Shown here piece by piece: positions 5,749-20,217 of a stretch of DNA of 64,000 nucleotides (positions within the stretch are counted from its first letter, which is position 1; each line of letters opens with the position of its first letter). The notes beneath the pieces are model-generated. The model worked only from the letters and a program-made list of their open reading frames with translations, did no database searches and was not told the origin of the DNA. The translations under genes were made by a program, and so were the position numbers. Source of the DNA: a virus; the IMG/VR virus record IMGVR_UViG_3300047560_001714, positions 64,001 through 128,000 of that record. One strand, given 5' to 3'.

Positions 5749-5750
5749 TA

Positions 5751-6018: not shown

Positions 6019-6029
6019 AGCTAACAAAT

Positions 6030-6106: not shown

Positions 6107-6114
6107 ACTAAATT

Positions 6115-6280: not shown

Positions 6281-6287
6281 AATTTAT

Positions 6288-6362: not shown

Positions 6363-6368
6363 ACAAAT

Positions 6369-6443
6369 ATATCGGTGGTGTAATGGTAACATACGGGCCT
6401 CCAAAGCCTTGAGATTAGGGTTCAAATCCTTACCGGTATGCCA
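6369..6443 (+). tRNA. tRNA-Trp(CCA)
   Basis: GGC-CTCCAAA-GCC; acceptor ATATCGG/CCGGTAT; CCA. Confidence 0.85.
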
Positions 6444-6454
6444 AACAAAAAATA

Positions 6455-6544
6455 GGAAGAGTGGCAGAGTGGTTTAATGCAGCGGTCTTGAAAACCGCCG
6501 ACGGTTAGTCCCGTCCGTGAGTTCGAATCTCACTTCTTCCGCCA
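6455..6544 (+). tRNA. tRNA-Ser(TGA)
   Basis: GCGGT-CTTGAAA-ACCGC; long variable arm; CCA. Confidence 0.93.
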
Positions 6545-6549
6545 AATAT

Positions 6550-6605
6550 TGGATGCTAACAGCAATTACTTATAATTTCTTTTGGTGAAACTTAAATGCA
6601 TCCAG
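6550..6605 (+). ncRNA. CAGCA-stem element E3 with Gln(TTG)-like anticodon stem-loop
   Basis: TGGATGC|TAACAGCAA...TTTC-TTTTGGT-GAAA...GCATCCA|G; near-duplicate of 13935..13990. Confidence 0.7.
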
Positions 6606-6726
6606 CTTAAATAATGTTCTGTCGTATAACAGCTACATAGTAGTGAAATATGTCCCACACCACTGGGGAAGATATTGGTGAAAATCCATTCAGAACTAAC
6701 ATTTCTAAACAACTTGAGAGATTATT

Positions 6727-6996
6727 ATGAAAAAATTACTTTTACTTGCTGGCCTAACTTTATTAGTAACTGGTTGTGCTGCAACCGGTGAATTAGATAC
6801 AGTTCCGGACCGTGTTAACAAACTAGAAGCCGCTGATAAGGTATTCAAAACCGATTTGAAAACTTTAACTGATAAAACCGCATCGTTGACAAATACACAA
6901 CAACAATGTATTAATCATTGTAAACTTTCTTCAAGTCGAATGAACAATTTCGATAGAAAACTTGATAACGCTTTCAACAAAGCACTAATTAAGTAA
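6727..6996 (+). CDS. Small lipoprotein, Lpp/OprI-like coiled coil
   Basis: Signal peptide with lipobox LVTGC; heptad repeats; K-rich C-terminus. Confidence 0.7.
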   Translation: MKKLLLLAGLTLLVTGCAATGELDTVPDRVNKLEAADKVFKTDLKTLTDKTASLTNTQQQCINHCKLSSSRMNNFDRKLDNAFNKALIK

Positions 6997-7067
6997 TTTA
7001 AAAAAATCCTTGACAAATCTATAAACACACACTAGAATAACCTTTTATTTAATTGGAGGTAAACACG

Positions 7068-7265
7068 ATGTCTGAACAACTTAGTAGAATGATGTACACT
7101 GGCTTATTCCTTTTAATATTTGCGGTTATCTGTTCGACGTTTGGTGGATATGTCGTATATAACCACATGAGTAAAAATTATTTCCCAATCCAAGATAGCA
7201 ATATCGGTGGGTTTGTGTTTAGAAAAGGAAAAGTTTATTCATTAGAAGAAGTCAAGGATTTATAA
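7068..7265 (+). CDS. Small single-TM membrane protein
   Basis: GGAGG Shine-Dalgarno; hydrophobic N-terminal helix. Confidence 0.6.
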   Translation: MSEQLSRMMYTGLFLLIFAVICSTFGGYVVYNHMSKNYFPIQDSNIGGFVFRKGKVYSLEEVKDL

Positions 7266-7798
7266 TGAAAACTTTATCAACTATATTTTTTCTATTACTA
7301 TCACACTCAGCGTGTGCTGATGTGGTCAAAGTGATCGATACAAAGACCGGTAATATTGAATTAGTTAAAACACGTTCTTTCTCTCTAGCTAAAAATATAG
7401 ATAAAAAGATTTATTCAAAAGCTGACATAAATCGATTTGTCAAATTAGCATCAATTAAGAACAAGGTTGACGAAAAACTGATTCACGCTGTTATTAAGGC
7501 TGAAAGTAGTTATAGAAAAAATGCAATAAGTAAAGTAGGCGCAGCTGGTTTGATGCAACTCATCCCAGCAACTGCCACTAGATTTGGTGTGACCGACCGA
7601 TTTGATGTTAAACAGAATATTGACGGTGGTACCAAGTATCTTAAATTCCTACTAAATACGTTTAAGAACACACCACTTGCTCTGGCTGGTTATAATGCAG
7701 GGGAAAATGCAGTCATTAAATATAACTACAAAATTCCCAACTACCCAGAAACTAAAAATTATGTTAAAGTGGTGATGGAAAATTACGTAACGGAATAG
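7265..7798 (+). CDS. Soluble lytic transglycosylase with signal peptide
   Basis: IKAESS catalytic Glu, GAAGLMQL, ALAGYNAG, ET..YV. Confidence 0.92.
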   Translation: MKTLSTIFFLLLSHSACADVVKVIDTKTGNIELVKTRSFSLAKNIDKKIYSKADINRFVKLASIKNKVDEKLIHAVIKAESSYRKNAISKVGAAGLMQLIPATATRFGVTDRFDVKQNIDGGTKYLKFLLNTFKNTPLALAGYNAGENAVIKYNYKIPNYPETKNYVKVVMENYVTE

Positions 7799-7801
7799 AC
7801 T

Positions 7802-8563
7802 ATGATAACACTACTTAATATATATAAACAATCACTGTTAATGGCTAAACTAAGTTCATTGGCATATAATACTGACCAATCATTCAAAGATCTCGGATAT
7901 GATAGTAAGTATATATTTAGGAAAGGTTCCGAAGCATATGTTTTGTGGGATAACGACGATTTTATTATAGTTTGTCGTGGTACACAACCAAATAAGTTTG
8001 AAGACATTATAGCTGATATTAGACTCAATTTGGTACCTAGCTATTCTAACCGTGGTAGAGCGCACGCCGGATTTAAACACAGCGTCGATCTATTGTGGCC
8101 AGAACTGGAAAAACTTATTATTAAGTATGGTTCAAACAGAAAAATCTGGTGTACTGGACACAGTCTAGGTGCAGCAATGGCAACATTGATTACAGCAAGG
8201 TTGCCATTATTAAAGACCACTACCCCAACATTATTTACATTTGGTAGCCCTCGTGTTGGCGATGCTGATTTACACGATTATCTAATCGAGTTAGGTGTTG
8301 AACATCATAGATGGGTCAATAATGCGGATATGGTTACACGTAACCCAGTATTCCCATATCGTCATCACGGTATACTATATTATATGAATCATCATGGTGA
8401 ACTTGCCACGATGAGTATAATTAGAACCGCGATTGATAGAATTAAAGGTTTCATTACTGGTATTAAGAAAGGAAAAGTAAATTTCTTTGTTAATCACTTC
8501 ATTGAAAATTATATTAACAACATAGAAAAAATGGTTGATGATGAAAAAAATAGCAATTCCTAA
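7802..8563 (+). CDS. Lipase class 3 family
   Basis: CRGT, TGHSLG nucleophile elbow, FGSPRVG. Confidence 0.92.
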   Translation: MITLLNIYKQSLLMAKLSSLAYNTDQSFKDLGYDSKYIFRKGSEAYVLWDNDDFIIVCRGTQPNKFEDIIADIRLNLVPSYSNRGRAHAGFKHSVDLLWPELEKLIIKYGSNRKIWCTGHSLGAAMATLITARLPLLKTTTPTLFTFGSPRVGDADLHDYLIELGVEHHRWVNNADMVTRNPVFPYRHHGILYYMNHHGELATMSIIRTAIDRIKGFITGIKKGKVNFFVNHFIENYINNIEKMVDDEKNSNS

Positions 8564-8816
8564 TTTTACGGATGATGAATCCGACCCTTTCTGGTGGGAT
8601 AAATTTGCGTCAGACATCGGGTATCTTGACATACAGGAATACCAATATGATGAATATGCAAAAATATTAACGAATAAAGCCAATAACATATTATTAGAAT
8701 ATAATGCCACATTTGAGTTATCACTAATGGCCGATCCAAGTGCTATTTGTGATTATGCAGTTATTACCTTTAAAGATGAAGCAAAGTATAATTGGTTTTT
8801 ACTAAAATACACATAA
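8535..8816 (+). CDS. Small phage hypothetical protein
   Basis: C-terminal F.DE..Y.WFLLKY pattern; overlaps neighbouring genes. Confidence 0.55.
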   Translation: MMMKKIAIPNFTDDESDPFWWDKFASDIGYLDIQEYQYDEYAKILTNKANNILLEYNATFELSLMADPSAICDYAVITFKDEAKYNWFLLKYT

Positions 8817-9490
8817 TGCGGTCGGATGAATATAAAAATAAAATAATAAATAACCTTTCATCACCGTATAGGATTGATAATTTTATAACAGAAACTGAGC
8901 GTAATTTATTAAAAGACTATTTTAACGATAGTTCACATAAAATAATTAAAAATACTGGACCTATTGTACTACATCTATCTGAATATGATTACCAGAATGA
9001 AGTACTGTATGGTATAAAAACTAGAGTTGAGCAATTATTAAATTCATCTGTATATTTTGGGCATTTTTTCTATACGAATCGACCACATATAATTCATAAT
9101 GATGATAGTTTAAGTATCAACGTGCCGTATAAAGGTATAAACATACCAATCGAAACGTGTGAGGAAACATCATTGTGTATTTTTGATCAATTCTACCTAG
9201 ATGGCCCATGTAAATTTTTTAATGGGTCAACTGATATACCAACCTATCATAATTTACAAAAATATGAATATTCTGGTGTTCAAGGATTGGTCGATGGTGA
9301 TTTTGATGAAAGTTTTCGTATAAAACATTTAAACCATTTAGAACCATCATGGTTACAAGGGCTTTCTATAAAAGAAATGATTCAGCAAACCATGAATTGT
9401 GGTATAGTATTTGATACAGTAAACTTACACTGTTCAACAAATTTTAAACAATCCAAACTTGGATTAAGTTTTTTTACACATTTGATATGA
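8816..9490 (+). CDS. Hypothetical, possibly 2OG-Fe(II) oxygenase-like
   Basis: IHND and distal LHC motifs. Confidence 0.5.
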   Translation: MRSDEYKNKIINNLSSPYRIDNFITETERNLLKDYFNDSSHKIIKNTGPIVLHLSEYDYQNEVLYGIKTRVEQLLNSSVYFGHFFYTNRPHIIHNDDSLSINVPYKGINIPIETCEETSLCIFDQFYLDGPCKFFNGSTDIPTYHNLQKYEYSGVQGLVDGDFDESFRIKHLNHLEPSWLQGLSIKEMIQQTMNCGIVFDTVNLHCSTNFKQSKLGLSFFTHLI

Positions 9491-10026
9491 TCAACAAAGA
9501 TGCGTTCTCGAATGGCCAAATTGATAGTAAACTATGGTTATGCCAAGAATTAGAAAATTTAGAATGGACGTCAGAACTAACGCAAATATACGGTGGATGG
9601 TATGGAATTACCGCATTTTTATTATTAAGTCGTGAAAAATTCAAAGTAACGCGCATAGAAAGTTATGATATTGACCCATCGTGTCAGGTTATTGCTGATA
9701 TGATTAATGAAAATTGGGTATTTAAAAATTGGCAATTTAAAGCACATACCGCTGATTGTAATAATATATTAACACAGCCAGATTTAATTATTAATACCTC
9801 AACTGAACATTTTGATGAAATGGACTGGTTTCATAACATAAAACCAGGTACACGAGTGATATTACAAGGCAACAATATGCCACATGACGATCACTTTATA
9901 CACAGTCAATCACTTAAAATGTTTATTGACAACTACCCATTAACTAGTATATACTATACTGGTGAATTAGATTTTAAATACCCATCTTGGGGATTCACTA
10001 GATACATGATTATCGGTGTGAAATAA
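9487..10026 (+). CDS. SAM-dependent methyltransferase-like protein
   Basis: YGGWYG motif I, SYDID, INTSTEH. Confidence 0.65.
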   Translation: MINKDAFSNGQIDSKLWLCQELENLEWTSELTQIYGGWYGITAFLLLSREKFKVTRIESYDIDPSCQVIADMINENWVFKNWQFKAHTADCNNILTQPDLIINTSTEHFDEMDWFHNIKPGTRVILQGNNMPHDDHFIHSQSLKMFIDNYPLTSIYYTGELDFKYPSWGFTRYMIIGVK

Positions 10027-10046
10027 TCATATCACTAAATATTGTT

Positions 10047-10502
10047 ATGTTAAATATATACACAAAAGAATTGATGGGTAGTTTTAAAAATATTAATGAT
10101 AAGATTGACAAATTAAACGAAATTGGTGTAACATATACACGGATTGATCTTGATGGTAGTTACATTGGTGAAATAAAGTTCTTGCATAATGTTCCTTATC
10201 ATGATACAATATCTGTAAATGAAAATACTGAGAATTATCCAGAATTAAGAAACAAGTTTAAACGTGAACATACTCATGATGACTTTGAAATGAGATTATT
10301 CACACACGGTACAGCATCTTTTTTCATAAATGCTAATGATTTAGTTTATGAATTAGTTGTTGGACCAGCTGATTTAATCAGTATACCAGCTAATACCAAA
10401 CATTGGTTCGATGCTGGTGACAACCCAGACTTTTCGGCAATTAGGTTTTTTACAGACGAAGATGGATGGATTGCAAAATATACTGATGAAAAAAATGCTT
10501 GA
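10047..10502 (+). CDS. mtnD: Acireductone dioxygenase (methionine salvage)
   Basis: EHTH.D.E metal motif, GPADLISIPANTKHWF, IRFFTDEDGW. Confidence 0.85.
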   Translation: MLNIYTKELMGSFKNINDKIDKLNEIGVTYTRIDLDGSYIGEIKFLHNVPYHDTISVNENTENYPELRNKFKREHTHDDFEMRLFTHGTASFFINANDLVYELVVGPADLISIPANTKHWFDAGDNPDFSAIRFFTDEDGWIAKYTDEKNA

Positions 10503-10527
10503 CAAGTTAAAAAGATAAGTGTATAAT
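10499..10527 (+). promoter_or_regulatory. sigma70 promoter for tRNA/ncRNA operon
   Basis: TTGACA-17nt-TATAAT. Confidence 0.8.
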
Positions 10528-10544
10528 TTGTCACATATTGAAAC

Positions 10545-10556
10545 AGTTCTTTAACA
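10545..10556 (+). promoter_or_regulatory. rrn-type boxA antitermination-like site
   Basis: AGTTCTTTAACA, 10/12 match to E. coli TGCTCTTTAACA, in the transcript leader. Confidence 0.5.
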
Positions 10557-10562
10557 AATTAT

Positions 10563-10639
<77 letters not shown>

Positions 10640-10643
10640 ATAT

Positions 10644-10775
10644 AGGATCTTAACAGCATATTCTATTTGCCTTCTAAGCACGAGATGTGGGTTCGAATCC
10701 CACACGTAATTTGCGGACTAATGTAGCAAATAACGTTAGCTTAACGGGATAGAGCACGATAAAAATAAGATCCTG
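10644..10775 (+). ncRNA. CAGCA-stem element E5: circularly permuted tRNA-Arg(TCT)-like body
   Basis: AGGATCT|TAACAGCAT, TGC-CTTCTAA-GCA, T-arm GTGGGTTCGAATCCCAC, closed acceptor hairpin, D-arm TAGCTTAACGGGATAGAGC, AGATCCT|G. Confidence 0.75.
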
Positions 10776-10783
10776 ACCCTTAT

Positions 10784-10900
10784 AGGTTTCTAACAGCAAG
10801 TATTATGGGGATCGGAAATGGTAGGTTCGAGTCCTACTATGCAGTCGTATGATTGCATAAGGGCTACGGGTGGTGCCGCCGATTATAAAAATGAAACCTG
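10784..10900 (+). ncRNA. CAGCA-stem element E6: YrlA-like (T-arm, closed acceptor, D-arm)
   Basis: AGGTTTC|TAACAGCAA, ATCGG/CCGAT, GTAGGTTCGAGTCCTAC, TATGCAGTC-GTAT-GATTGCATA, GAAACCT|G. Confidence 0.75.
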
Positions 10901-10909
10901 TTAATTTTA

Positions 10910-11025
10910 TGAATGCTAACAGCAATTTAATAACACCTGACGTGTCGTGAGTTCGAATCTCACCGTGTAAGTAATTACACGTAGCTCAGTTGGTAGAGCA
11001 TCTGGCCATAAAAAAATGCATTCAG
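10910..11025 (+). ncRNA. CAGCA-stem element E7: YrlA-like (T-arm, closed acceptor, D-arm)
   Basis: TGAATGC|TAACAGCAA, GTGAGTTCGAATCTCAC, CGTGTAA-GTAA-TTACACG, TAGCTCAGTTGGTAGAGCA, GCATTCA|G. Confidence 0.8.
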
Positions 11026-11034
11026 TATATATTT

Positions 11035-11096
11035 TGGTTGTTTTCAGCAATTTTAAAGATTCGATTTCTTATTTTTCCCAGGTGGGATACAACCAG
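11035..11096 (+). ncRNA. CAGCA-stem element E8 (T-loop-like hairpin)
   Basis: TGGTTGT|TTTCAGCAA...AAGA-TTCGATT-TCTT...ACAACCA|G. Confidence 0.6.
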
Positions 11097-11343
11097 TAAC
11101 TTTTGACTTTTGGTAACACTATGTTTATACTTATTACTGCTGAATCAATTATATTATTATTAACAATATACTTTGGTTGGCGTATTTGGACAAAGATTTC
11201 AAACAAAATTACGGAGTTTTTCAAATGACTACTGATACATCGGATGATGAAGCTGTTTTAACAATGGACCCCGAAACTTTTGCAAAACTGTTTCGAGATG
11301 AACTTGAAAAGCTTAAACAAAAGCAGAACGACGCACAATAATT

Positions 11344-11430
11344 GGAAGGTTGCCAGAATGGTATTGGAGCGGATTGCTAATCCGTCAACGGGAAACCGTT
11401 GTATAGGTTCGAACCCTATACCTTCCGCCA
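11344..11430 (+). tRNA. tRNA-Ser(GCT)
   Basis: GCGGA-TTGCTAA-TCCGT; long variable arm; CCA. Confidence 0.93.
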
Positions 11431-11443
11431 ATTACCTATAAAT

Positions 11444-11510
11444 TGGATACATACAGCATATTTAAAATCACTGCAAATGACCTTTCCGGGTGATAACCGG
11501 AGGTATCCAG
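11444..11510 (+). ncRNA. CAGCA-stem element E9 with Cys(GCA) and Ile(GAT)-like anticodon hairpins
   Basis: TGGATAC|ATACAGCAT...TCA-CTGCAAA-TGA...TCCGG-GTGATAA-CCGGA...GTATCCA|G. Confidence 0.7.
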
Positions 11511-11532
11511 ATTAAATTTTAAGGAGACATTT

Positions 11533-11760
11533 ATGAGAATAGTAGTCCCAGCGTACCACGTACCAGTTGTTGCAAATTATATTTCAAGAGCACCATATGT
11601 AATTTGCCCAAAAGATGCGTTGGTATTAAATCGTTATGATGTTGGAACACAAAAAGAAACTGCTGATGTATTATTCTATACATTATATGCAGGTGGTGGG
11701 ATACATATGCATCGCGTTAAAGATGTGTCTGAAATAAACACAATAAACGTATACGCATAA
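11533..11760 (+). CDS. Hypothetical protein
   Basis: AAGGAG Shine-Dalgarno. Confidence 0.6.
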   Translation: MRIVVPAYHVPVVANYISRAPYVICPKDALVLNRYDVGTQKETADVLFYTLYAGGGIHMHRVKDVSEINTINVYA

Positions 11761-11784
11761 AAATTTAACAATAAAAAATAATAT

Positions 11785-11859
11785 TCCCTAATAGCTCAGT
11801 GGTAGAGCAGACGGCTGTTAACCGTCCGGTCGGTGGTTCGAGCCCATCTTAGGGAGCCA
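11785..11859 (+). tRNA. tRNA-Asn(GTT)
   Basis: GACGG-CTGTTAA-CCGTC; CCA. Confidence 0.95.
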
Positions 11860-11883
11860 ATTTAACATTAAAAAGGAAATGCT

Positions 11884-12036
11884 ATGAGCAATTGGCACGG
11901 TGGAAAGGGTTCTAAACAACGACCCTTTGATAGACAAAAATTTTCAGACAACTGGGACGCTATCTTTAAAAAAACCCCAGATAACGTCCAAGAAAATAAA
12001 CCAAACCAAGAAAAAGATGACAATGAAAAAAAATAA
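11884..12036 (+). CDS. Small phage protein (GGKGS..RP...NWD.IF type)
   Basis: AAGGA Shine-Dalgarno; 50 aa MSNWHGGKGSKQRPFDRQKFSDNWDAIFKK... Confidence 0.65.
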   Translation: MSNWHGGKGSKQRPFDRQKFSDNWDAIFKKTPDNVQENKPNQEKDDNEKK

Positions 12037-13540
12037 AATAGTAATTGTCGGGGGCGGTTCAGCTGGATGGATTACGTTATCATATTTATCAGCAACCACC
12101 GACGCTGAACTAGTATTAATCCACTCAAATGAAATCGATTCTATTGGAGTTGGCGAAAGCACAACACCAACTATTAAACATATTGCGGAAACCGTTGGCG
12201 TACCGGAATACGAATGGATGAAACAATCCAAAGCAACATTTAAATACGGTGTTGATTTCCATGACTTTAACAGTTTAGGTTCACGATGGGTACATACCTT
12301 TGATGATATGATACCACATCAGGCATTTACTAGACCATTATGCGATAATGGTAAAGAAGAATTTAAACGTGATTTGACTAGTGTTGATTATTTTTTACAT
12401 CATTATGGTAAAGATGTTTCATTATTTAACGAAACCCATGGACCACAAGAATACTTGATAAAAAATAAATTAAGTCCATTTAATAAAAATGGAATTAACA
12501 ATATAAACAAATTTCCAGGATATGGGTATCATGTTAATGCATTTGAATTTGGAAAATGTTTAAAAAATCACGTACCAGAAACCCGATATGAAGAAATAAA
12601 CGCAACCATAATTGAAGTTGTAGAAAATAATGATGGTATTGAGTACGTTGTATTAGACACTGGTGAAAAAATCTATGGTGATATATTCTTTGATTGCTCT
12701 GGGTTTACTAGGGTACTTATGAAAAATCTATCAACCTGGGATTCATATACTGAATTAGTAAATGACCGTGCAATATGGGGTGAAATTCATAATGTTACCT
12801 CAGACGAACCAGTTACGGGTGTATATGCGCAAGAATCAGGATGGATATGGACTATCCCAACATGGAACCAAATTGGTTCTGGGTATGTATATTCTAATAA
12901 ATTTAGTTCTGATGAACGGGCCGAAGAAGTAATTACAGACTTTTGGCGTGAACGTGGTTACAAATTTGTTAAAAGAAAACAAGTTGCGTTTGACGCCGGA
13001 AGATTAAACAATGTTACATTTAAAAATGTAATTAGCAATGGATTGGCCCAAAGTTTTATAGAACCATTGGAAGCCACCAGCTTAATGATTACGTGCGTAA
13101 CAGTACGCAGTTTTAGTGATTTATACAATAAGCATAAAATATGGAGTGCAAAAACTAGTTCAATTCATGATCGAATAATGAAACGGTTTATTGACCATAC
13201 TAAAAAGTTTGTTCTATATCATTATAGACTATCTGAAAGAATAGATACACCATATTGGCGGTCAGTTGGTAACGATCCAACCGCAGTGCAAGAGGTATCT
13301 GATTATATAGATATTTTGGCATCAAGTAAATGGGTTGGCAAAGGGGATACCCTATTGAATCAATGGAACTGGGTAAGTATGCTCCTTGGCTTTAATAAAA
13401 AATATACTAATAAATTAAAATCAGATGTTGACATTGACGATTATTTATTATATAATAAAACCTTAATTTATCATTACCAGTCATTAGTTGGTCAAAATAT
13501 TCCAATACTTGATTTGTTAAATAAAATTAATAATACTTGA
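12017..13540 (+). CDS. Tryptophan halogenase-like flavin-dependent enzyme
   Basis: GGGSAGW, GVGEST, DCSGF, GWIWTIP, FIEPLEATS; true start at 12017 or 12023. Confidence 0.88.
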   Translation: MTMKKNKIVIVGGGSAGWITLSYLSATTDAELVLIHSNEIDSIGVGESTTPTIKHIAETVGVPEYEWMKQSKATFKYGVDFHDFNSLGSRWVHTFDDMIPHQAFTRPLCDNGKEEFKRDLTSVDYFLHHYGKDVSLFNETHGPQEYLIKNKLSPFNKNGINNINKFPGYGYHVNAFEFGKCLKNHVPETRYEEINATIIEVVENNDGIEYVVLDTGEKIYGDIFFDCSGFTRVLMKNLSTWDSYTELVNDRAIWGEIHNVTSDEPVTGVYAQESGWIWTIPTWNQIGSGYVYSNKFSSDERAEEVITDFWRERGYKFVKRKQVAFDAGRLNNVTFKNVISNGLAQSFIEPLEATSLMITCVTVRSFSDLYNKHKIWSAKTSSIHDRIMKRFIDHTKKFVLYHYRLSERIDTPYWRSVGNDPTAVQEVSDYIDILASSKWVGKGDTLLNQWNWVSMLLGFNKKYTNKLKSDVDIDDYLLYNKTLIYHYQSLVGQNIPILDLLNKINNT

Positions 13541-13565
13541 CATTATAAATAAATACTGATATAAT
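13537..13565 (+). promoter_or_regulatory. sigma70 promoter
   Basis: TTGACA-17nt-TATAAT. Confidence 0.75.
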
Positions 13566-13576
13566 AGGTACATAAA

Positions 13577-13765
13577 ATGACAGTAGCTAGTAAAGCAAAC
13601 CGAAAAGCGAATCCGCTTAAAACTAAAAATGACAAAACACGTATTAACGTGTTAAGTGACAAACAGTTAGTATTAGCATTAGAAAAAGCAACACGCGGCC
13701 GTGATAAATCAAAAATCAGAAGTCGTATTGCATTTAAACTTAAAAATCATTCACAACAACCCTAG
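13577..13765 (+). CDS. Small basic hypothetical protein
   Basis: ORF directly after promoter. Confidence 0.6.
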   Translation: MTVASKANRKANPLKTKNDKTRINVLSDKQLVLALEKATRGRDKSKIRSRIAFKLKNHSQQP

Positions 13766-13774
13766 AGGTGTATT

Positions 13775-13921
13775 ATGGCAGTAGAAGTAAAAAAATGTAA
13801 TTGCAGTGGTTCACTAGCGGCTAAGTTCCAAGATAAAGAATATGGTCAAGGAATGCGCGTTATGAATCAAACCTTGAAAAAAGAATACAATTGTACAGTT
13901 TGTGGTGCAAAACACAAATAG
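13775..13921 (+). CDS. Small Zn-binding protein (CxC...QD..YG.G.RV.N...CxxC)
   Basis: GAGG Shine-Dalgarno; 48 aa with CNC and CTVC. Confidence 0.65.
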   Translation: MAVEVKKCNCSGSLAAKFQDKEYGQGMRVMNQTLKKEYNCTVCGAKHK

Positions 13922-13934
13922 TTACACCTAATTT

Positions 13935-13990
13935 TGGATGCTAACAGCAATTACTTATAATTTCTTTTGGTGAAAATAAAATGCATCCAG
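13935..13990 (+). ncRNA. CAGCA-stem element E10 (Gln-TTG-like loop; duplicate of E3)
   Basis: TGGATGC|TAACAGCAA...TTTC-TTTTGGT-GAAA...GCATCCA|G. Confidence 0.7.
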
Positions 13991-14003
13991 CATAAATTAA
14001 TAT

Positions 14004-14079
14004 GCCACCGTAGCTCAATCGGTAGAGCGCCTCACTTGTAATGAGGATGTTGAGGGTTCGATTCCTTTCGGTGGCTCCA
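14004..14079 (+). tRNA. tRNA-Thr(TGT)
   Basis: CCTCA-CTTGTAA-TGAGG; CCA. Confidence 0.95.
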
Positions 14080-14102
14080 TTCACAATAACTTAAATGATC
14101 TT

Positions 14103-14309
14103 ATGACACCGGAACCAGACGATTTAGAAAACATTTTAAATAATCTTACTGATGACGATTTCGACAGCATCAACGAATCTATAAATTCTGACATTGACGA
14201 CGAGTTCGACGACGATGAGGAACTGTCGATTGAAGAAATGAAAGATATTTGGGGCGTAGACTTTGATGACGATGATTTAGACCCATTTGATATCCCTGGC
14301 GACAGGTGA
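14103..14309 (+). CDS. Very acidic small protein
   Basis: D/E-rich 68-aa ORF. Confidence 0.55.
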   Translation: MTPEPDDLENILNNLTDDDFDSINESINSDIDDEFDDDEELSIEEMKDIWGVDFDDDDLDPFDIPGDR

Positions 14310-14319
14310 TAACCACTTT

Positions 14320-14376
14320 TGGATACTTACAGCATATTAACTTCGACTTGAAACTTGAAAACAACTATGTATCCAG
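14320..14376 (+). ncRNA. CAGCA-stem element E11 with Ser(TGA)-like loop
   Basis: TGGATAC|TTACAGCAT...TTCGA-CTTGAAAC-TTGAA...GTATCCA|G. Confidence 0.65.
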
Positions 14377-14400
14377 AATTAAACATGTAGTGTAATCTGA

Positions 14401-14471
14401 GCGGGATTGGTATATAGGTTGTGCCTTAGCCTTCCAAGCTAATGAAACGAGTTCGACTCTCGTATCCCGCT
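14401..14471 (+). tRNA. tRNA-Gly(TCC), no encoded CCA
   Basis: TTAGC-CTTCCAA-GCTAA; U73; acceptor stem extended by flanking inverted repeat. Confidence 0.88.
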
Positions 14472-14498
14472 CAGATTACAATCCGTGTAACTCTTACA

Positions 14499-14688
14499 AG
14501 AATAGTTTCAGCAACATACTACAAATAACTTACTGGAAATGGTATTTTATCGTGGGTTTTAGCCCAACAAAACCGATGGAATATCTAGTGTTGGTAGAAT
14601 ACCAAATAGGCTAGTAGAATACTAGATAGGATCTGGTTGGGTAGACCGAGACTGACTGAAAACTAATTTCACCCAAAAAGCTATTCTG
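14499..14688 (+). ncRNA. CAGCA-stem element E12 (long, multi-hairpin)
   Basis: AGAATAG|TTTCAGCAA...CTATTCT|G; internal hairpins TTGGTA-GAA-TACCAA and CTAGTA-GAA-TACTAG. Confidence 0.6.
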
Positions 14689-14716
14689 TTTCCTTTAACC
14701 TTACAATGAGAAAAAT

Positions 14717-14989
14717 ATGTCTAATATTACAGCAAACCATATCTTAGTAGAAACGCTTGAACAAGCACAAGACTTACAACGCCAGTTATCGGAAGGCGCA
14801 TCATTCTCAGACTTAGCAAAATCTCACAGCAAATGTCCGAGTGGTACACGTGGCGGTGATTTAGGTTCATTTGGTAGAGGCCAAATGGTACCAGAATTTG
14901 AAAATGCCGCATTTGGCTTAGATGTCGGTGGGTTTAGTGAACCAGTACAAACACAATTTGGATACCATTTAATTAATCGCACCGCTTAA
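14717..14989 (+). CDS. ppiC: Parvulin-type peptidyl-prolyl isomerase
   Basis: HILV, F.DLAK.HS.CPSG..GGDLG, MVPEFE.AAF, TQFGYHLI. Confidence 0.93.
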   Translation: MSNITANHILVETLEQAQDLQRQLSEGASFSDLAKSHSKCPSGTRGGDLGSFGRGQMVPEFENAAFGLDVGGFSEPVQTQFGYHLINRTA

Positions 14990-14990
14990 T

Positions 14991-15278
14991 ATGGATTACA
15001 CTGTATTATATGATCGGGTTTTAATTAAACCGATTGAAGAAAACAAAACATTAAGTTCTGGTATTGTTTTAGTAGCAGAACAAAAAAGTACAACCACCAC
15101 TGGTACAGTAATTGCAATTGGTGATGGAAAACAGTATGATAATGGTAAGATAATCCCATTAACAGTCCAAGTTGATGATAATGTGTTATTCATGAAAAAT
15201 ACCGGTATCCCAACTAAATTAGATGGCGTTGAATATCTTATCTTGCGAGAATCAGAAATTCTTGGTATCATAGAATAA
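14991..15278 (+). CDS. groES: Co-chaperonin GroES
   Basis: LYDRVLIK, SGIVL, GTVIAIGDG, ILRESEILG. Confidence 0.93.
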   Translation: MDYTVLYDRVLIKPIEENKTLSSGIVLVAEQKSTTTTGTVIAIGDGKQYDNGKIIPLTVQVDDNVLFMKNTGIPTKLDGVEYLILRESEILGIIE

Positions 15279-15291
15279 AATATAGTATTAA

Positions 15292-15387
15292 AGGTTAATT
15301 TCCGCATACCATTTTTCTCCAGAGATGTACAAGACCCCATTGATCAGTGGTGAGATATGAAAAATCTCAAATATGATCATTAACCTG
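15292..15387 (+). ncRNA. CAGCA-stem element E13 (CCGCA variant) with Phe(GAA)-like loop
   Basis: AGGTTAA|TTTCCGCAT...TGAGAT-ATGAAAA-ATCTCA...TTAACCT|G. Confidence 0.6.
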
Positions 15388-15402
15388 ATTACCCATACCA
15401 AT

Positions 15403-15477
15403 GCACCAGTGACAGAATGGCTATGTAGCAGTCTGCAAAACTGTTTAATGCAGGTTCGACTCCTGTCTGGTGCTCCA
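15403..15477 (+). tRNA. tRNA-Cys(GCA)
   Basis: GCAGT-CTGCAAA-ACTGT; U73; CCA. Confidence 0.93.
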
Positions 15478-15508
15478 AATAAATATGTTATAAACTAGGA
15501 GTATTGAC

Positions 15509-15808
15509 ATGCATCACGAACGATTATCAGAATATGCTGTAATCAGAGATAAACTTTCAACCCGCCGGGCATTTTTATTACATCTCATCGATGAGGATTC
15601 ATATGAACTTGTTGGAATCGTAAACTTTGAAACCGGCGAATTCCAAACAGAAAATATCGTTGAACCGGAGCACGATTTAGATGATTACCCATTTCTTTAT
15701 ACTGTAAAGGATACAGATTGGTATTGTCATCCAGATGATCACGACGCAATGATTAAAAAATATGCGGAAGAAAGTCTTAAAGAAACATTTAAAAAATTAA
15801 ATATTTAA
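15509..15808 (+). CDS. Hypothetical protein
   Basis: AGGAG Shine-Dalgarno. Confidence 0.65.
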   Translation: MHHERLSEYAVIRDKLSTRRAFLLHLIDEDSYELVGIVNFETGEFQTENIVEPEHDLDDYPFLYTVKDTDWYCHPDDHDAMIKKYAEESLKETFKKLNI

Positions 15809-15814
15809 TTTTAC

Positions 15815-15842
15815 TTGACAACCGCCAAAAACCTGGTATAAT
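15815..15842 (+). promoter_or_regulatory. sigma70 promoter of the TROVE/Ro60-like gene
   Basis: TTGACA-16nt-TATAAT. Confidence 0.8.
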
Positions 15843-15851
15843 TACCCACAT

Positions 15852-15887
15852 AGATTAGATACAGCAACTATTTTTTACACTAAACTG
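15852..15887 (+). promoter_or_regulatory. Minimal CAGCA-stem element E14 in the 5' UTR of the TROVE gene (candidate autoregulatory site)
   Basis: AGATTAG|ATACAGCAA...CTAAACT|G (6/7 bp), immediately before Shine-Dalgarno AAGGTG. Confidence 0.65.
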
Positions 15888-15900
15888 AAAGGTGAATTAC

Positions 15901-17304
15901 ATGACATTAATTGCAGAAAAAACAACAACAACAACAACAAATGGTATGGCGGCGTTAAACACATCAACGACAGCCCTTACCGATTTATTCTTTAACATTG
16001 GTGCTATGCGTGGTAAAGATATTATTCCACAATTCACCAGTGCATTATCTGAAAATCGTGAGTTAGCATTACGAATTGCACTATGGTCGCGTGATGCTCG
16101 TGGTGGCGCTGGTGAAAGACAACTTTTCAGAGATATTCTAAATCATTTAGAAAACACCGATGTTTCCGCCGCCGAAGCATTAGCAAACCGCGTTGGTGAA
16201 TTGGGCAGATGGGATGATTTGTTTGTGTTTAAAACCAAACATATGAAAGAATTTGGGTTTGAGTTAATTAAACAAGCGTTGGCAGCTAAGAATGGATTGG
16301 CAGCTAAATGGACCCCACGTAAAGGACCAATTTCGGTTGAATTACGCAAATACTTGGGTTGGAGTCCAAAGCATTATCGTAAAACATTGGTGGCATTGAC
16401 ATCAGTGGTTGAAACCCAAATGTGTGCTAATGATTGGGATAACATCAATTTCAGCCACGTGCCATCTGTTGCTAGTGCTAGATACAAAAAAGCTTTCAAT
16501 AGACATACACCTAAGTTTGCTGAATATGTTAATGCACTGGTTTCTGGTGATACATCAGTTAAAGTCAATGCTGGTGCAATCTATCCATATGATGTTTTAA
16601 GTGCGTTGAAAGGTTATAATGTTGATTCAACGATTAAAAACCATGTTATTGCACAATGGGCCGCATTACCAAACTTTGTTGGTGACGCTAATATTTTACC
16701 ATTAGTTGACGTTAGTGGTTCTATGTCGTGTTCAGCGGGTGGTAAAAACGCATCTCTAACTTGTATGGATGTTGCAGTTTCCCTTGGGTTGTATCTTTCA
16801 GATAAAAACTTAGGTGAATTCAAAAACAAGTTTATTACGTTTCATGAAAAACCAGAATTGATAACACTTGAAGGGGATATTGTTCAACAGAACCAGCAAA
16901 TGCTAAGATCAAAATGGGGCATGAGTACAAACTTGGAATCAGCATTTAACTTGATTTTAAATTTAGCAACCAGTTGCAATGTTCGTAACGCAGATATGCC
17001 AGAAATTTTGTTGATTTTATCGGATATGCAATTTAACCAGGCGGTTACATCTCCAAGTGATACCGCAATGGAAATGATTGAACGTGCATATGCCGCTGCT
17101 GGATATTCTGTTCCTAAAATTGTATTCTGGAATTTAAATGCAAGTGGGAATGTCCCAGTAACATCGGATAAATCTGGCGCAGCATTGGTATCTGGGTTCT
17201 CACCATCAATTATGACTAGTTTATTATCTGCCGATATGTCTGAGTTTACACCATACGGCATTATGATTAAAACAATCATGAATGAACGGTATGACCACCA
17301 GTAA
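15901..17304 (+). CDS. TROVE/Ro60-like protein with vWA domain (DUF2828-type)
   Basis: RDARGGAGER, GRWDDL, AAKWTPR, VNAGAIYPYD, VDVSGSM (MIDAS), LSDMQF, IVFWNL; start ATG 15901. Confidence 0.85.
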   Translation: MTLIAEKTTTTTTNGMAALNTSTTALTDLFFNIGAMRGKDIIPQFTSALSENRELALRIALWSRDARGGAGERQLFRDILNHLENTDVSAAEALANRVGELGRWDDLFVFKTKHMKEFGFELIKQALAAKNGLAAKWTPRKGPISVELRKYLGWSPKHYRKTLVALTSVVETQMCANDWDNINFSHVPSVASARYKKAFNRHTPKFAEYVNALVSGDTSVKVNAGAIYPYDVLSALKGYNVDSTIKNHVIAQWAALPNFVGDANILPLVDVSGSMSCSAGGKNASLTCMDVAVSLGLYLSDKNLGEFKNKFITFHEKPELITLEGDIVQQNQQMLRSKWGMSTNLESAFNLILNLATSCNVRNADMPEILLILSDMQFNQAVTSPSDTAMEMIERAYAAAGYSVPKIVFWNLNASGNVPVTSDKSGAALVSGFSPSIMTSLLSADMSEFTPYGIMIKTIMNERYDHQ

Positions 17305-17311
17305 TAACAGT

Positions 17312-17336
17312 GGAGGGGTTTTACCCCTCCTTTTTT
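17312..17336 (+). terminator. Intrinsic terminator after TROVE gene
   Basis: GGAGGGG-TTTTA-CCCCTCC + T6. Confidence 0.85.
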
Positions 17337-17359
17337 CAACCCCCTTATATATAAAACAA

Positions 17360-17647
17360 ATGAATATTGAGATTGCACCAACCGACCATATATTAACAAA
17401 TTGGAAAGATGCCAACAGTTATTGCGAACATTTAGATTATGGTGGGAAACATGATTGGCGACTTCCGACTGTTGCTGAACTTGAAGAATTGCAACAAAGT
17501 TCAGAATATTCATACAAAGAGTTTTACTGGGCAAACAAAGCACAAAGTTACTTTTTATCTTGGGCAACAAATATGAGTACCGGGCTGTCAAAGTTGATTT
17601 TTAAAGACTATAAAGCATACGTGCTTCCAGTTAGAACAGTATCTTGA
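17360..17647 (+). CDS. DUF1566/Lcl C-terminal-like protein
   Basis: NWKDANSYC..L..GG..DWRLPT..EL. Confidence 0.75.
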   Translation: MNIEIAPTDHILTNWKDANSYCEHLDYGGKHDWRLPTVAELEELQQSSEYSYKEFYWANKAQSYFLSWATNMSTGLSKLIFKDYKAYVLPVRTVS

Positions 17648-17652
17648 TTTTT

Positions 17653-17766
17653 AGGCAGTTTCGGCACTGTATAACAGTATTACTGCCTCGGCTGAAGCGA
17701 AATGACCGAAATGGGCTGCTCTCACGGGGTTTCTGTAGTTGTACCTGACACACGAGAACAACTACA
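17653..17766 (+). ncRNA. Candidate structured (pseudoknotted) RNA upstream of Pth2
   Basis: AGGCAGT/ACTGCCT stem; TTTCGG/CCGAAA cross-pairing; TGTAGTTGT/ACAACTACA hairpin. Confidence 0.4.
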
Positions 17767-17785
17767 TCTATTTTATGTGGATAAT

Positions 17786-18169
17786 ATGACAATTGAACCA
17801 AAACAAGTAATTGTAGTAAGAAAAGACCTTAACATGCGCAAAGGTAAAATGATAAGCCAAGGCTGTCACGCATCCGTAGGCGCAGTTCTTAAATGTATGA
17901 ACAAAGTGAACAAAGGTGATGATAGTAATTTTGATGCCTTAGAAGAATGGTTAGCCGGTCGATTCACCAAAATTTGTGTGTATGTTGAAAGTGAAAAAGA
18001 ACTATTAGATATCTACGCAAATGCAAAGGATGCCGCACTTAATGTTAAATTGATTAAGGACGCTGGTTTAACTGAATTTAATGGGGTACCGACTTTAACT
18101 TGCTTGGCAATTGGGCCAGATTACCCAGACAAAATAGATAAAATAACTGGCCATTTAAAGCTGTTATAG
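17786..18169 (+). CDS. pth2: Peptidyl-tRNA hydrolase, PTH2 (archaeal/eukaryotic-type) family
   Basis: KQVIVVRKDL.M.KGK...Q..HAS, KICV.V.SE.EL, DAG.TEF...TLTCLAIGP. Confidence 0.92.
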   Translation: MTIEPKQVIVVRKDLNMRKGKMISQGCHASVGAVLKCMNKVNKGDDSNFDALEEWLAGRFTKICVYVESEKELLDIYANAKDAALNVKLIKDAGLTEFNGVPTLTCLAIGPDYPDKIDKITGHLKLL

Positions 18170-18256
18170 AATATTTTCTCGGCTGATACTAGAGGTTGTA
18201 CCAAGTGTACAATATTTTGGTATCGGCCTTTACACTTCAAATCAATACAACTATTT

Positions 18257-18496
18257 TTGATGCTGTGTTTTCCACATATTAAACCAATGAACTATATAAA
18301 CCAACGATTACGAAAAATAACTCAATATTTTACTGAACAAAATTATACACTAAGCGAACACGATATAGATTTTATCGGTGACATTTTAGCAAATGCTATT
18401 ATTGCTGGTAAAATTGATGATGAATTATTCCGAGATGCTATAAAATGGCGACAAGAACTTAGAGACACTAAAAATGACACTATTAACGAAAATTAA
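18257..18496 (+). CDS. Hypothetical protein
   Basis: ORF in operon; start uncertain. Confidence 0.45.
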   Translation: MMLCFPHIKPMNYINQRLRKITQYFTEQNYTLSEHDIDFIGDILANAIIAGKIDDELFRDAIKWRQELRDTKNDTINEN

Positions 18497-18911
18497 AGAA
18501 GATCAGTTTGCCGCGAGAAAAAACGGAACTGATAAAATTAAAATATCATTACTTACCGTACTATTTAACGAAGCTATTAACGTGGGTTTCAATGATGGTA
18601 AACGTGACACCACCGATGCTGAAGTAATTACAGTAATAAAAAAATTGTTAAAAAGTATTGATGAATGTATTTCAGCCGGTTCGTCTAAAGGAATCGATAT
18701 CAGCCCATACGAGGTGGAACGAGATATTCTGAATACCTATTTACCCCAACAATTAACGTCCGCTGAGATTAAAGAATTAATACAAGACATCATCAAGCAC
18801 GGTGGTAAACCTGCTGGGATGAAATTTTTAAAAGAGAATCATGCCGGTAAATATGATGGTAAAATTGCATCCGCTGCCATCGATGAATTGCTCACCCAAA
18901 GTACTGGCTAA
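18474..18911 (+). CDS. GatB/YqeY domain protein
   Basis: LL.KIK.D...A.K, E..IL..YLPQQL, M..LK..HAGKYDGK.AS. Confidence 0.82.
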   Translation: MTLLTKIKEDQFAARKNGTDKIKISLLTVLFNEAINVGFNDGKRDTTDAEVITVIKKLLKSIDECISAGSSKGIDISPYEVERDILNTYLPQQLTSAEIKELIQDIIKHGGKPAGMKFLKENHAGKYDGKIASAAIDELLTQSTG

Positions 18912-19230
18912 ATTTTTTCAATTCACCCTCTGAAAGATTATTCTTTGCGCGATTCGCACGAAATGATATTATTTCAATATTATCCTTAACATAACCCAAA
19001 GATGAATCTTTTCTATCAAAAGAATACGAGTCATCTTTGGGTGCTCCTCTATTCCATTTCAATGGTATCCCTAAGATTGGGCAAGTCAATGGCATCCCAA
19101 TTTCTTCAATATCTGAAACAGTTAAATCAAAATAAATCCCTCTTTTTTTAGCTGAACTTTTTAATCTTTTAATAATCTCTGCTGATGCTAATGGTTTTAA
19201 CAGTGTATTCATAATAATATTTATTGACAT
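18892..19230 (-). CDS. HNH-like endonuclease-family protein, inverted orientation
   Basis: CPILGIPL, S.DR.DSS.GY..DNI.IIS.RAN..K. Confidence 0.7.
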   Translation of the reverse strand: MSINIIMNTLLKPLASAEIIKRLKSSAKKRGIYFDLTVSDIEEIGMPLTCPILGIPLKWNRGAPKDDSYSFDRKDSSLGYVKDNIEIISFRANRAKNNLSEGELKKFSQYFG

Positions 19231-19281
19231 TTATTTTTTATTGTGTATAATTTGTATTTTATAACACAACTGGAGAATACA

Positions 19282-19656
19282 ATGACAGACTTTAACGCTG
19301 CGGCGGAATTGAAAGGGTTGCAAACCCAACTTGCAAAATCTATCGCAAACAAAGAGATTTTGCAAAATGATGTAAAACTTAAACAAAAAGAACTTGCTGA
19401 ATTGACAGATAAAATCAACGGTATGCAAACTAGAATTGCTGAAATAACATCCGATGAAAAAGAGCCTGTAATATCTGAACACGCTATTTTACGATATCTT
19501 GAACGTATTAAAGGACTTGATATTACGGCAATTAAAGATGAAATCTTGGATGAAAAAACCATTGCAAATATTAAGTTTATAAAACGTAATGGTAAAATTA
19601 AACGTGACGCGTTTAATTTAGTGGTTAAAGATAATATTGTGGTATCCATTTACTAA
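19282..19656 (+). CDS. Coiled-coil hypothetical protein (SEHAILRYLERI motif)
   Basis: GGAG Shine-Dalgarno; TTGACA-TATAAT upstream near 19225. Confidence 0.65.
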   Translation: MTDFNAAAELKGLQTQLAKSIANKEILQNDVKLKQKELAELTDKINGMQTRIAEITSDEKEPVISEHAILRYLERIKGLDITAIKDEILDEKTIANIKFIKRNGKIKRDAFNLVVKDNIVVSIY

Positions 19657-19665
19657 GGAGGAAAC

Positions 19666-20217
19666 ATGGCGGTATATATAACTAGTGACTTGCATTTTCA
19701 TCACAAAAACATTCTTACGTTTAATAGTAACACTAGACCGTATCAATCAGTAGAACACATGAACGCAGAAATCATTCGTGAATGGAATAACACTGTTACT
19801 GATGATGATACCGTCTATATTTTAGGTGATGTTGGGTTGTGTTCACAACGTAAAGCTATCGATGCGATGGCGGCGTTAGCCGGAAGTAAAATTTTGATTC
19901 AAGGCAACCATGATAAGTACTTTGTTCAAAATAAACACTTTGTAAACTGCTTTACTGAAATTCATCAATATCTCGAAATAAAACATAACAAACATAAAAT
20001 ATGTATGTTTCATTTCCCTATATCAGAATGGCATGCGTGCCACCATGGAAGTATCCATCTACACGGACATTTACATGGGGCACCATCTGGACTTGAAAGG
20101 TATAGAGTTAGAGATGTTGGGATGGATGCAACTGGTAAAGTTGTATCATTGCTAGACGACATTTTAGCAGACGCATTAACAGGTGAAATTAAAAATCATG
20201 GTGGAATAAATGGATAG
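19666..20217 (+). CDS. Calcineurin-like metallophosphoesterase
   Basis: SDLHF.H, LGDV, GNHD, HFP, HGH.H. Confidence 0.92.
   Translation: MAVYITSDLHFHHKNILTFNSNTRPYQSVEHMNAEIIREWNNTVTDDDTVYILGDVGLCSQRKAIDAMAALAGSKILIQGNHDKYFVQNKHFVNCFTEIHQYLEIKHNKHKICMFHFPISEWHACHHGSIHLHGHLHGAPSGLERYRVRDVGMDATGKVVSLLDDILADALTGEIKNHGGING

Follow-up and report, generated by a model that had tools for sequence, protein, structure and literature searches.

The window analysed here is a stretch of 64,000 nucleotides (nt) of viral DNA, positions 64,001 to 128,000 of the 187,935-bp IMG/VR record IMGVR_UViG_3300047560_001714. On its plus strand lies a gene for a protein with a predicted Ro60-like fold, preceded by a region that holds 17 tRNAs and ten members of a family of small RNA elements built on a closing stem and an unpaired CAGCA core. 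The leader of the Ro60-like gene carries a reduced copy of the same element, placed directly before its Shine-Dalgarno (SD) sequence. The leader was characterised computationally through its anatomy, conservation, covariation, family membership and SD position, together with the predicted fold of the gene product and the co-occurrence of gene and RNA family. On sequence evidence, the best-supported reading is that the protein recognises the CAGCA stem and that the leader copy is a cis-regulatory mimic of its target. The role that suits it best is autogenous translational repression by target mimicry; we infer both the binding and the repression, and regard this account as evenly balanced between right and wrong.

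The gene is served by a sigma-70-type promoter (Table 1). Transcription is predicted to start at about 15848-15851, 0-3 nt 5′ of the stem, because the usual distance from the −10 element is 6-8 nt. The leader module, an 8-bp stem with the unpaired CAGCA, is 37 nt long in total and is encoded on the same strand as the Ro60-type gene that it adjoins. Its arms pair at 7/8 positions, the U.G at the base included, and the single A×A mismatch is pair 4. The 3′ arm is complementary to the 5′ arm, ends in C-W-G and closes on the U.G base, as 3′ arms of the family do. Between the CAGCA core and the 3′ arm there are 13 nt and no inner helix, so that the copy is cargo-free. With its last stem position at 15887 and the SD beginning at 15889, the element sits in the gene's own 5′ untranslated region (UTR), adjoining the ribosome-binding site, with the 3′ arm spanning −21 to −14 relative to the ATG at 15901. 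Judged by alignment, this ATG is the true start codon, because homologs begin at an aligned ATG. Among the terminator-like sites in a scan of positions 1..20000, the one at 17312 alone belongs to the Ro60-like gene, which is therefore monocistronic. The first-pass annotation of the window had located the promoter, the stem with CAGCA, the SD, the ATG and the terminator correctly, as judged by reading the sequence and by the promoter and terminator scans, and its descriptions of the leader copy as cargo-free and of the gene as monocistronic both hold.

Table 1. Positions of the Ro60-like gene, the parts of its leader and the other CAGCA-stem elements in the window.
Feature	Position	Strand	Remarks
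Sigma-70-type promoter TTGACA, 16-nt spacer, TGgTATAAT	15815..15842	+	12/12 promoter match with TG (promoter scan); −35 TTGACA 15815-15820, extended −10 TG 15834-15835, −10 TATAAT 15837-15842
Closing-stem 5′ arm TAGATTAG (T+AGATTAG)	15851..15858	+	Fits the 5′-half pattern of the family
Spacer AT (15859-15860), core ACAGCA (15861-15866) and A (15867)	15859..15867	+	
Residual loop CTATTTTTTACA, 12 nt, without cargo hairpin	15868..15879	+	
Closing-stem 3′ arm CTAAACTG (CTAAACT+G)	15880..15887	+	7/8 pairs with the 5′ arm
Shine-Dalgarno sequence AAGGTG	15889..15894	+	Starts 1 nt past the stem
Ro60-like gene, 467 aa	15901..17304	+	DUF2828 (PF11443) and DUF7788 (PF25043); PHROG 850 'RNA-binding protein'
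Intrinsic terminator GGAGGGGTTTTACCCCTCC and T-run	17312..17330	+	8 nt past the stop at 17304 (terminator scan)
Ten other family members in the tRNA region (positions 4645..14376)	4645-4708, 4719-4777, 6549-6605, 10643-10775, 10783-10900, 10909-11025, 11034-11096, 11443-11510, 13934-13990, 14319-14376	+	

Two further structural readings of the leader were rejected. A terminator or attenuator is contradicted by the lack of a T-run after the stem, and the terminator-like sites found in 1..20000 all lie elsewhere, none in the leader. Pairing of the loop with the SD, as a pseudoknot or anti-SD helix, appears in one 112-nt minimum free energy (MFE) fold, which joins the U-run to GAAAGGUG; the centroid is unstructured, the z-score is positive, and leaders with differing SD tails show, by eye, no matching change in the loop.

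The gene product matches DUF2828 and DUF7788 only, and Pfam TROVE (PF05731) gave no match even at an expectation value (E) of 10 or below. An assignment to TROVE at the level of sequence was rejected on this ground, support being found at the level of the predicted fold only. The protein belongs to a large family (6,090 representative clusters at E ≤ 0.001), and a profile of 100 members searched against PDB sequences placed Ro60 structures on top, weakly (E 0.018-0.054). An AlphaFold2 model (predicted local distance difference test score 93.4, predicted template modelling (TM) score 0.91) was compared with the PDB by Foldseek. The best 12 matches listed were all Ro60/TROVE, full length, with E 2e-9 to 2e-6 and TM scores of 0.46-0.63, and included Ro60 of the Thermus phage phiLo (9kop, 9l5y), of Xenopus (1yvr/1yvp) and of human, as well as Deinococcus Rsr (2nvo). 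For the phiLo, Xenopus and Deinococcus structures E lies between 2e-9 and 8e-7 and the TM score between 0.5 and 0.63. In model and matches alike the protein consists of a HEAT-repeat ring and a C-terminal vWA domain. The MIDAS motif DxSxS (D270, S272, S274) is invariant in 100 sequences, as are several basic residues of the N-terminal domain in the 100-member alignment. To call the gene product Ro60-like is justified at the level of its predicted fold. Its best protein-level relatives, at 43-48% identity, belong to large tRNA-rich phages (Citrobacter Ci1, Cronobacter S13, Synechococcus BUCT-ZZ01, Stenotrophomonas DLP_6 and Vibrio KVP40); a nucleotide search with the window among GenBank phages returned no relative.

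The ten elements of the tRNA region are built alike. A 5′ arm of 8 nt reads W W G R W T N N and is followed by the two spacer positions W W, then by N-CAGCA-W and 33-109 nt of cargo; the complementary 3′ arm has C-W-G at its end. A pattern for the 5′ half, WWGRWTNNWWNCAGCAW, derived from these ten non-leader copies only, has 12 matches in the window versus 0.24 expected, all on the plus strand; the two extra matches are at 14498 and in the leader of the Ro60-like gene (15851-15867). CAGCA is invariant in the 40/40 non-leader elements of alignment A2. In 777 kb of related loci, 226 strict elements, of which 61 are leaders, all lie on the gene strand and 0 on the other. A chance match was rejected on the grounds of the excess in the window, this strand bias and the conservation described below.

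Elements of the window begin 3-5 nt past tRNA 3′ ends or stop 4-25 nt before tRNA 5′ ends, and since they adjoin tRNAs this closely (within 3-25 nt) they are probably freed by tRNA processing. Three long cargos hold T-arm and D-arm sequences. One of them, 10943-10999, matches positions 27-81 of Rfam YrlA, its tRNA-like core, with 37.7 bits (E 2e-5), and a second cargo scores 21.8 bits. Because some members enclose such YrlA-like, tRNA-like bodies, the stem with its CAGCA is the module that holds the place of the Ro60-binding stem in bacterial Y RNAs, with another motif. The known Ro60-binding motifs are GNCGAAN0-1G in YrlA and GGUCCGA in animal Y RNAs (PMC4201824); both are absent from the 5′ strand of the leader stem, where ACAGCAA is found. 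Membership of the CAGCA elements in the Rfam Y RNA or YrlA families was rejected, as in an Rfam search of the window no element reached any gathering score (the YrlA match at 37.7 bits stands against a cut-off of 69), and the window leader gave no match to Y RNA (RF00019) or YrlA (RF02553) even at E ≤ 5.

Several members are arranged or built in distinctive ways. At 10499-11096 on the plus strand, one promoter (10499-10527) serves a tRNA-Met and, after it, a tandem row of four CAGCA-stem elements with gaps of 7-9 nt; the bodies of three are tRNA-like and permuted (T arm, capped stem, D arm), and one of these bodies matches the YrlA core. Hairpins make up many of the short non-leader cargos, and their 7-nt loops follow the form C-T-N-N-N-A-A (CTTGTAA, CTTTTAA, CCGTTAA), resembling tRNA anticodon loops, for example at L015:3189-3248, at L031:3409-3475 and at 6546-6605 in the window.

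Conservation of the leader copy was followed in two samples of related loci. The close sample comprised 80 IMG/VR loci whose protein is 63-70% identical to that of the window, 78 of them with upstream sequence; the closest protein relatives (P0002-P0004, with 84%, 83% and 72% identity) lie outside this leader sample. The element is present in the leader of 78/78 loci, and with the window added there are 49 unique element sequences, in all of which (49/49) CAGCA is invariant. Most of these leaders carry 28-41 nt of cargo with an inner hairpin. The stem itself varies from locus to locus as complementary pairs: GAATGC/GCATTC, GAATGT/ACATTC, GGTTAA/TTAACC, GGATAC/GTATCC and GTTTAT/ATAAAC. In alignment A1, 91% of cells are standard pairs and 73 cells carry double-sided changes, where column shuffling yields 23.4 ± 3.3; with the 3′ partner shifted by 1-3 columns as a control, pairing falls to 23-42%. 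The junction with the ribosome-binding site is fixed as well. In 47/49 unique leaders the distance from the 3′ arm to the start of the SD is −1 to +3 nt (+1 in the window), and the ATG follows the arm by 11-15 nt, while for 16 other open reading frames (ORFs) that are preceded by an element the SD is mostly 5-41 nt away. In the window, element 11443-11510 precedes an ORF at 11533-11760 (75 aa, no Pfam/PHROG match) whose SD lies 10 nt past the stem, and in a few relatives (L035, L042) an element stands 1 nt before the SD of a 93-aa ORF.

The distant sample was drawn from loci around P0124 (49% identical), with proteins 41-63% identical to that of the window, and comprised 68 unique leaders. The element, with CAGCA or CCGCA as its core, is found in 38/68 of them; applied to the reverse complement of these stretches and to the inside of the gene, the same test gives 0/68 each time. 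Its frequency declines with protein identity, from 9/9 at 58-70% through 11/13 at 52-58% and 16/32 at 47-52% to 2/14 at 40-47%. Many distant leaders have the CCGCA core (L105, L107, L113, L123, L151, L162), so that position 2 of the core is A or C and C-GCA is constant. The first-pass annotation had staked its proposal on the motif recurring upstream of homologous genes, and it does recur, in 79/79 close loci (window included) and 38/68 distant leaders; over both samples the leader element is kept in well over 100 related phages.

Leaders fall into two architectures. In 14/48 unique leaders, a class that includes the window, a near-consensus promoter of their own has its −10 element ending 6-12 nt before the 5′ arm; the stem is 0-5 nt from the predicted 5′ end, such transcripts should begin at the foot of the stem, and cargo is lost in 12/14. 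The other 34/48 have no promoter and lie 8-14 nt past the 3′ arm of another element, and 33/34 keep the cargo hairpin. Cargo-free leaders with perfect stems also occur in the distant sample (L132, L143, L134, L147, L148, L172, L177), several of them independent (L132, L143, L134 and L177). Whatever the context, the leaders compared retain the stem, CAGCA and their contact with the SD, which argues for a cis function tied to translation of the Ro60-like gene, beyond adjacency to the array.

Eleven GenBank phages were inspected for a leader element. The leader of DLP_6 (KU682439.2) holds a perfect copy, TAGATTGA cc ACAGCA, 18 nt and TCAATCTG, the last G of which opens the SD. BUCT-ZZ01 (ON615601.1) has three tandem elements ahead of the gene, the last stopping 11 nt before the SD. 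In KVP40 (L083, about 3900-3950) and Vibrio phage 1.081.O (L089, about 1400-1450) a half-site, AACGACATTwwACAGCAA, lies 20-25 nt before the ATG, behind a strong promoter and without a recognisable 3′ arm. No element was recognisable in the seven others; the leaders of Ci1 and S13 retain only AACCTGTATAGAGGA.

Membership of the leaders in the RNA family was assessed with two covariance models, R1 built from leaders and R2 from 40 non-leader elements only. R1, run over both strands of the 64-kb window, matched the elements of the tRNA region and the leader itself, and nothing else. R2 gave the leaders of relatives 42-51 bits (E 1e-8 to 1e-10, rough values from a shortened calibration) and short-cargo leaders 22.1 (L037), 17.8 (L018), 15.8 (L002) and 15.1 bits (L064). 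On these scores the leader element as a class is an unambiguous family member, and the leader of the window appears as the reduced end of a graded series, suggestive when taken alone. It keeps what is invariant in the family, namely U.G at the base, G and T at positions 3 and 6 respectively, the spacer WW, the sequence ACAGCAA, and the C and G of the 3′ arm.

Leader stems are weaker than those of other members, with a mean duplex energy of −6.4 versus −9.2 kcal/mol and a mean of 2.06 versus 3.30 G-C pairs. Compared within a locus, the leader stem falls below the mean strength of the other elements in 33/37 loci, which are related, so that p-values for this comparison overstate independence. 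In the window the leader stem is not predicted to be a stable helix, as its duplex energy is −1.6 kcal/mol where the family averages −9.2 kcal/mol; the predicted folding energy is −12.4 kcal/mol for family member 13931-13990 and about −4 kcal/mol for the leaders of L037 and L045. Arms like those of the window occur fully paired in L037 (TAGTTTAG/CTAAACTG) and L122 (TAGATTAG/CTAATCTG), and the promoter-proximal leaders of the L002 type and of L008 are likewise mismatched at pair 3-4, a mismatch that may be tolerated or selected.

The RNA family travels with the gene. In ten of ten GenBank phages chosen for carrying the gene, R2 found family members, always on the gene strand. Of five further large tRNA-bearing phages that were presumed to be negative, T4, RB69, T5 and S-PM2 lack RNA and gene alike, and Aeh1 unexpectedly has both. 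The family is thus present in 11/11 checked phages with the gene versus 0/4 without it, and such co-occurrence across phages with very different hosts favours a phage-encoded partner for the RNA, as far as genome content can indicate. Well-studied cultured phage groups have CAGCA-stem elements between tRNA genes or just 3′ of the Ro60-like gene. Escherichia phage fjerdesal (Felixounavirus) has them at L091:3203-3274 and 3370-3429. In Mycobacterium phage Finnry, which encodes a 'Ro-like' protein with 32% identity, a pair of elements closely follows the gene (L092:2925-2980 and 3128-3187); R1 gives one of the pair 41.5 bits, and one overlaps an annotated hypothetical coding sequence, 2987-3202, that is perhaps mis-annotated.

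A mechanism for autogenous control can be outlined on this basis. The protein would bind the stem-and-CAGCA handle of its RNA partners. The leader is a reduced family member in which the stem and CAGCA module alone survives, at or near the predicted 5′ end of the transcript, and it would resemble the primary RNA ligand of the protein, the elements being cast as ligands by their co-occurrence with the gene and by analogy with Ro60 and Y RNAs. Its weaker stem would confer a lower affinity. The weak leader stem would then be bound and stabilised by any protein in excess over the higher-affinity RNAs; sitting at −14 and upstream, this ring of about 53 kDa would keep the 30S subunit off the adjoining SD. 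We infer that the protein binds the module and competes sterically with the ribosome; in such a circuit the protein level might be titrated against the pool of RNA elements, the most speculative step of the scheme.

The type of circuit would be classical. Hairpin operators that mimic an RNA ligand just upstream of or over the SD are known from E. coli thrS, T4 gene 43, the MS2 coat protein and ribosomal-protein operons, and the T4 gene 32 operator is another precedent for autogenous translational control. Like these, the leader is a small 5′-UTR hairpin at the SD. In several known cases the operator is a weaker binding site than the primary target, which delays repression until that target is saturated; the weaker leader stems found here match this relation. 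Unlike in those systems, the putative repressor is a Ro60-like ring protein, of a family that is not known to regulate its own translation. Occurrence of such a circuit in the Ro60-like family, with a CAGCA module, would be new. The RNA family also has a parallel in the species 1 and 2 RNAs of phage T4, non-tRNA small RNAs that are co-transcribed with the phage tRNAs and probably freed by tRNA-processing enzymes, although T4 has neither the CAGCA-stem family nor the Ro60-like gene.

Several observations weigh against autogenous repression. The window copy is the weakest of the leader copies and has the A×A mismatch; its hairpin (15849-15887) has an MFE of 0 kcal/mol, z-scores are positive in 72- and 112-nt contexts, and R2 gives it 16.1 bits at a roughly calibrated E of about 0.11, a score comparable to that of one probable chance match at 45044. 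Weaker leader stems fit a tuned low-affinity operator, and they fit relaxed selection or decay equally. CAGCA differs from the known Ro60-binding motifs GGUCCGA and GNCGAAN0-1G (PMC4201824). All counts come from related metagenomic phages, whose loci are not independent events. Since only 7/226 strict elements lie downstream of the gene start and the gene is usually at the 3′ end of the array, the presence of an element before the gene could partly reflect synteny. Ci1, S13, RSP15, Ahp1, Milchi, fjerdesal and Finnry have the RNA family and no recognisable leader copy; in distant homologs, therefore, the protein does not need such feedback, and the leader copy is, from the phages compared, an addition of one large clade and not of the whole protein family. 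What the first-pass annotation had proposed, an autoregulatory operator recognised through CAGCA by the Ro60-like protein, has thus gained a conserved, covarying leader stem fixed to the SD, a Ro60-like fold and co-occurrence of gene and RNA, and has been tempered by the weakness of the window copy and by the clade-specific distribution.

An unlikely but substantial alternative to a repressor site would see the leader element as a minimal Y-like RNA transcribed together with the gene, or as a site for loading in cis. The protein may then still bind, the purpose being co-expression, assembly of a ribonucleoprotein (RNP) on the nascent transcript, or activation, and the element is perhaps cut from the mRNA. 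Y-like RNAs (Yrl1, Yrl2) do lie directly upstream of the Ro60 gene of Thermus phage phiLo (PMC12135203), the 34/48 unique leaders that form the last unit of a tandem array have no promoter of their own and keep a full cargo hairpin, and the probable release of family members by processing of nearby tRNAs is in keeping with such a product. It would be odd, however, if a released RNA were the product where cargo-free copies behind their own promoters keep just the stem, CAGCA and the SD contact. The tight spacing between stem and SD is specific to the Ro60-like gene, and cleavage after the stem would leave an mRNA beginning at the SD.

Improbable in our view is an element that acts independently of the protein, as a 5′-terminal stem-loop that stabilises the mRNA or as a processing or insulator signal for host RNases that also punctuates the tRNA and small-RNA transcripts. 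Hairpins at 5′ ends are known mRNA stabilisers, the stem of promoter-proximal leaders lies 0-5 nt from the predicted 5′ end, and elements flank tRNAs and each other at short, regular distances. Against this, leader stems are the weakest of the family and that of the window is not predicted to form, so that it would stabilise poorly; an unpaired CAGCA that never varies points to recognition of a specific sequence; and the family occurs only in phages with the Ro60-like gene (11/11 versus 0/4), whose hosts are very different, which argues for a partner encoded by the phage and not by the host.

Least probable of all, and very unlikely, is that the window copy is a decaying relic of an element functional in relatives, now inert after loss of its cargo and a base pair: the single mismatch relative to L037 and L122, the MFE of 0 kcal/mol, the duplex energy of −1.6 versus a leader mean of −6.4 kcal/mol and the 16.1 bits with R2 would suit decay, but the copy retains every family invariant as well as the canonical SD spacing of +1, leaders of the L002 type and L008 are mismatched at pair 3-4 too, and Ro60 contacts mainly the 5′ strand of the Y RNA stem according to the passage of PMC4201824 that cites Stein 2005.

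Further features of the window lie beside the gene and the RNA family. Neighbouring plus-strand genes (11900-13540, 14717-15278, 17702-18169) encode a tryptophan-halogenase-like protein (phrog_2928), a PpiC-type peptidyl-prolyl isomerase, a GroES/Cpn10 homolog and a Pth2 peptidyl-tRNA hydrolase. At 2034-2177 (+), downstream of a promoter-like site at 1947-1975, the window matches the Rfam Polynucleobacter-1 RNA (RF01718) with 53.6 bits at a gathering score of 37.

Ro60/Y RNA pairs are known in bacteria and phages (PMC4201824, PMC12135203), and a review of jumbo phages lists TROVE proteins among RNA-repair genes (PMC7824862). The system of the window resembles Ro60/Rsr with its Y RNAs (YrlA/YrlB and Yrn1, and phiRo60 with Yrl1/Yrl2 in phiLo) in its ring of HEAT repeats with a vWA domain, as predicted by the model, and in having small RNAs beside the gene and on the same strand, with a stem formed by their 5′ and 3′ ends and, in some, a YrlA-like, tRNA-like body; phiLo also has its Y-like RNAs directly upstream of the gene (PMC12135203). 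It differs in that the protein matches DUF2828/DUF7788 and not TROVE, and in that the motif is an unpaired CAGCA (sometimes CCGCA) and not GGUCCGA or GNCGAAN0-1G/CGAA (PMC4201824, PMC12135203). A handle-only copy fused to the ribosome-binding site of the gene is a third difference, not described for any Ro60. A full-text literature search, judged by titles and abstracts, gave no report on Ro60 autoregulation, and the phiLo paper (PMC12135203) makes no mention of autoregulation or a UTR. A search for DUF2828 returned unrelated papers only, with no CAGCA handle tied to DUF2828 proteins.

Ro60 and its Y RNAs form a conserved and poorly understood RNP, and the leader may bear on how the ratio of protein to RNA is set. 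It is a natural minimal RNA module that points to the probable recognition target of the DUF2828-type Ro60-like protein, and the circuit is directly testable in the cultured phages DLP_6 (Stenotrophomonas) and BUCT-ZZ01 (Synechococcus). A wider and more tentative proposal, which has somewhat less than an even chance of being correct, is that DUF2828 proteins and CAGCA-handled RNAs constitute a widespread, previously unrecognised RNP; across a large clade that takes in T4-like, cyanophage-like and other large phages, the protein would sense the pool of free RNA through a low-affinity handle fused to its SD. Should the operator reading fail, the conserved junction of stem and SD would still be a new and widespread cis element of phage mRNAs. 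If it is true, the leader would be the first autoregulatory Y-RNA mimic in the Ro60 superfamily, with the bare handle as the minimal protein-binding module, and it would anchor the function of a phage RNA family that travels with tRNA and RNA-repair/tRNA-rescue genes. Ro60-like proteins would then join the RNA-binding proteins under autogenous translational control.

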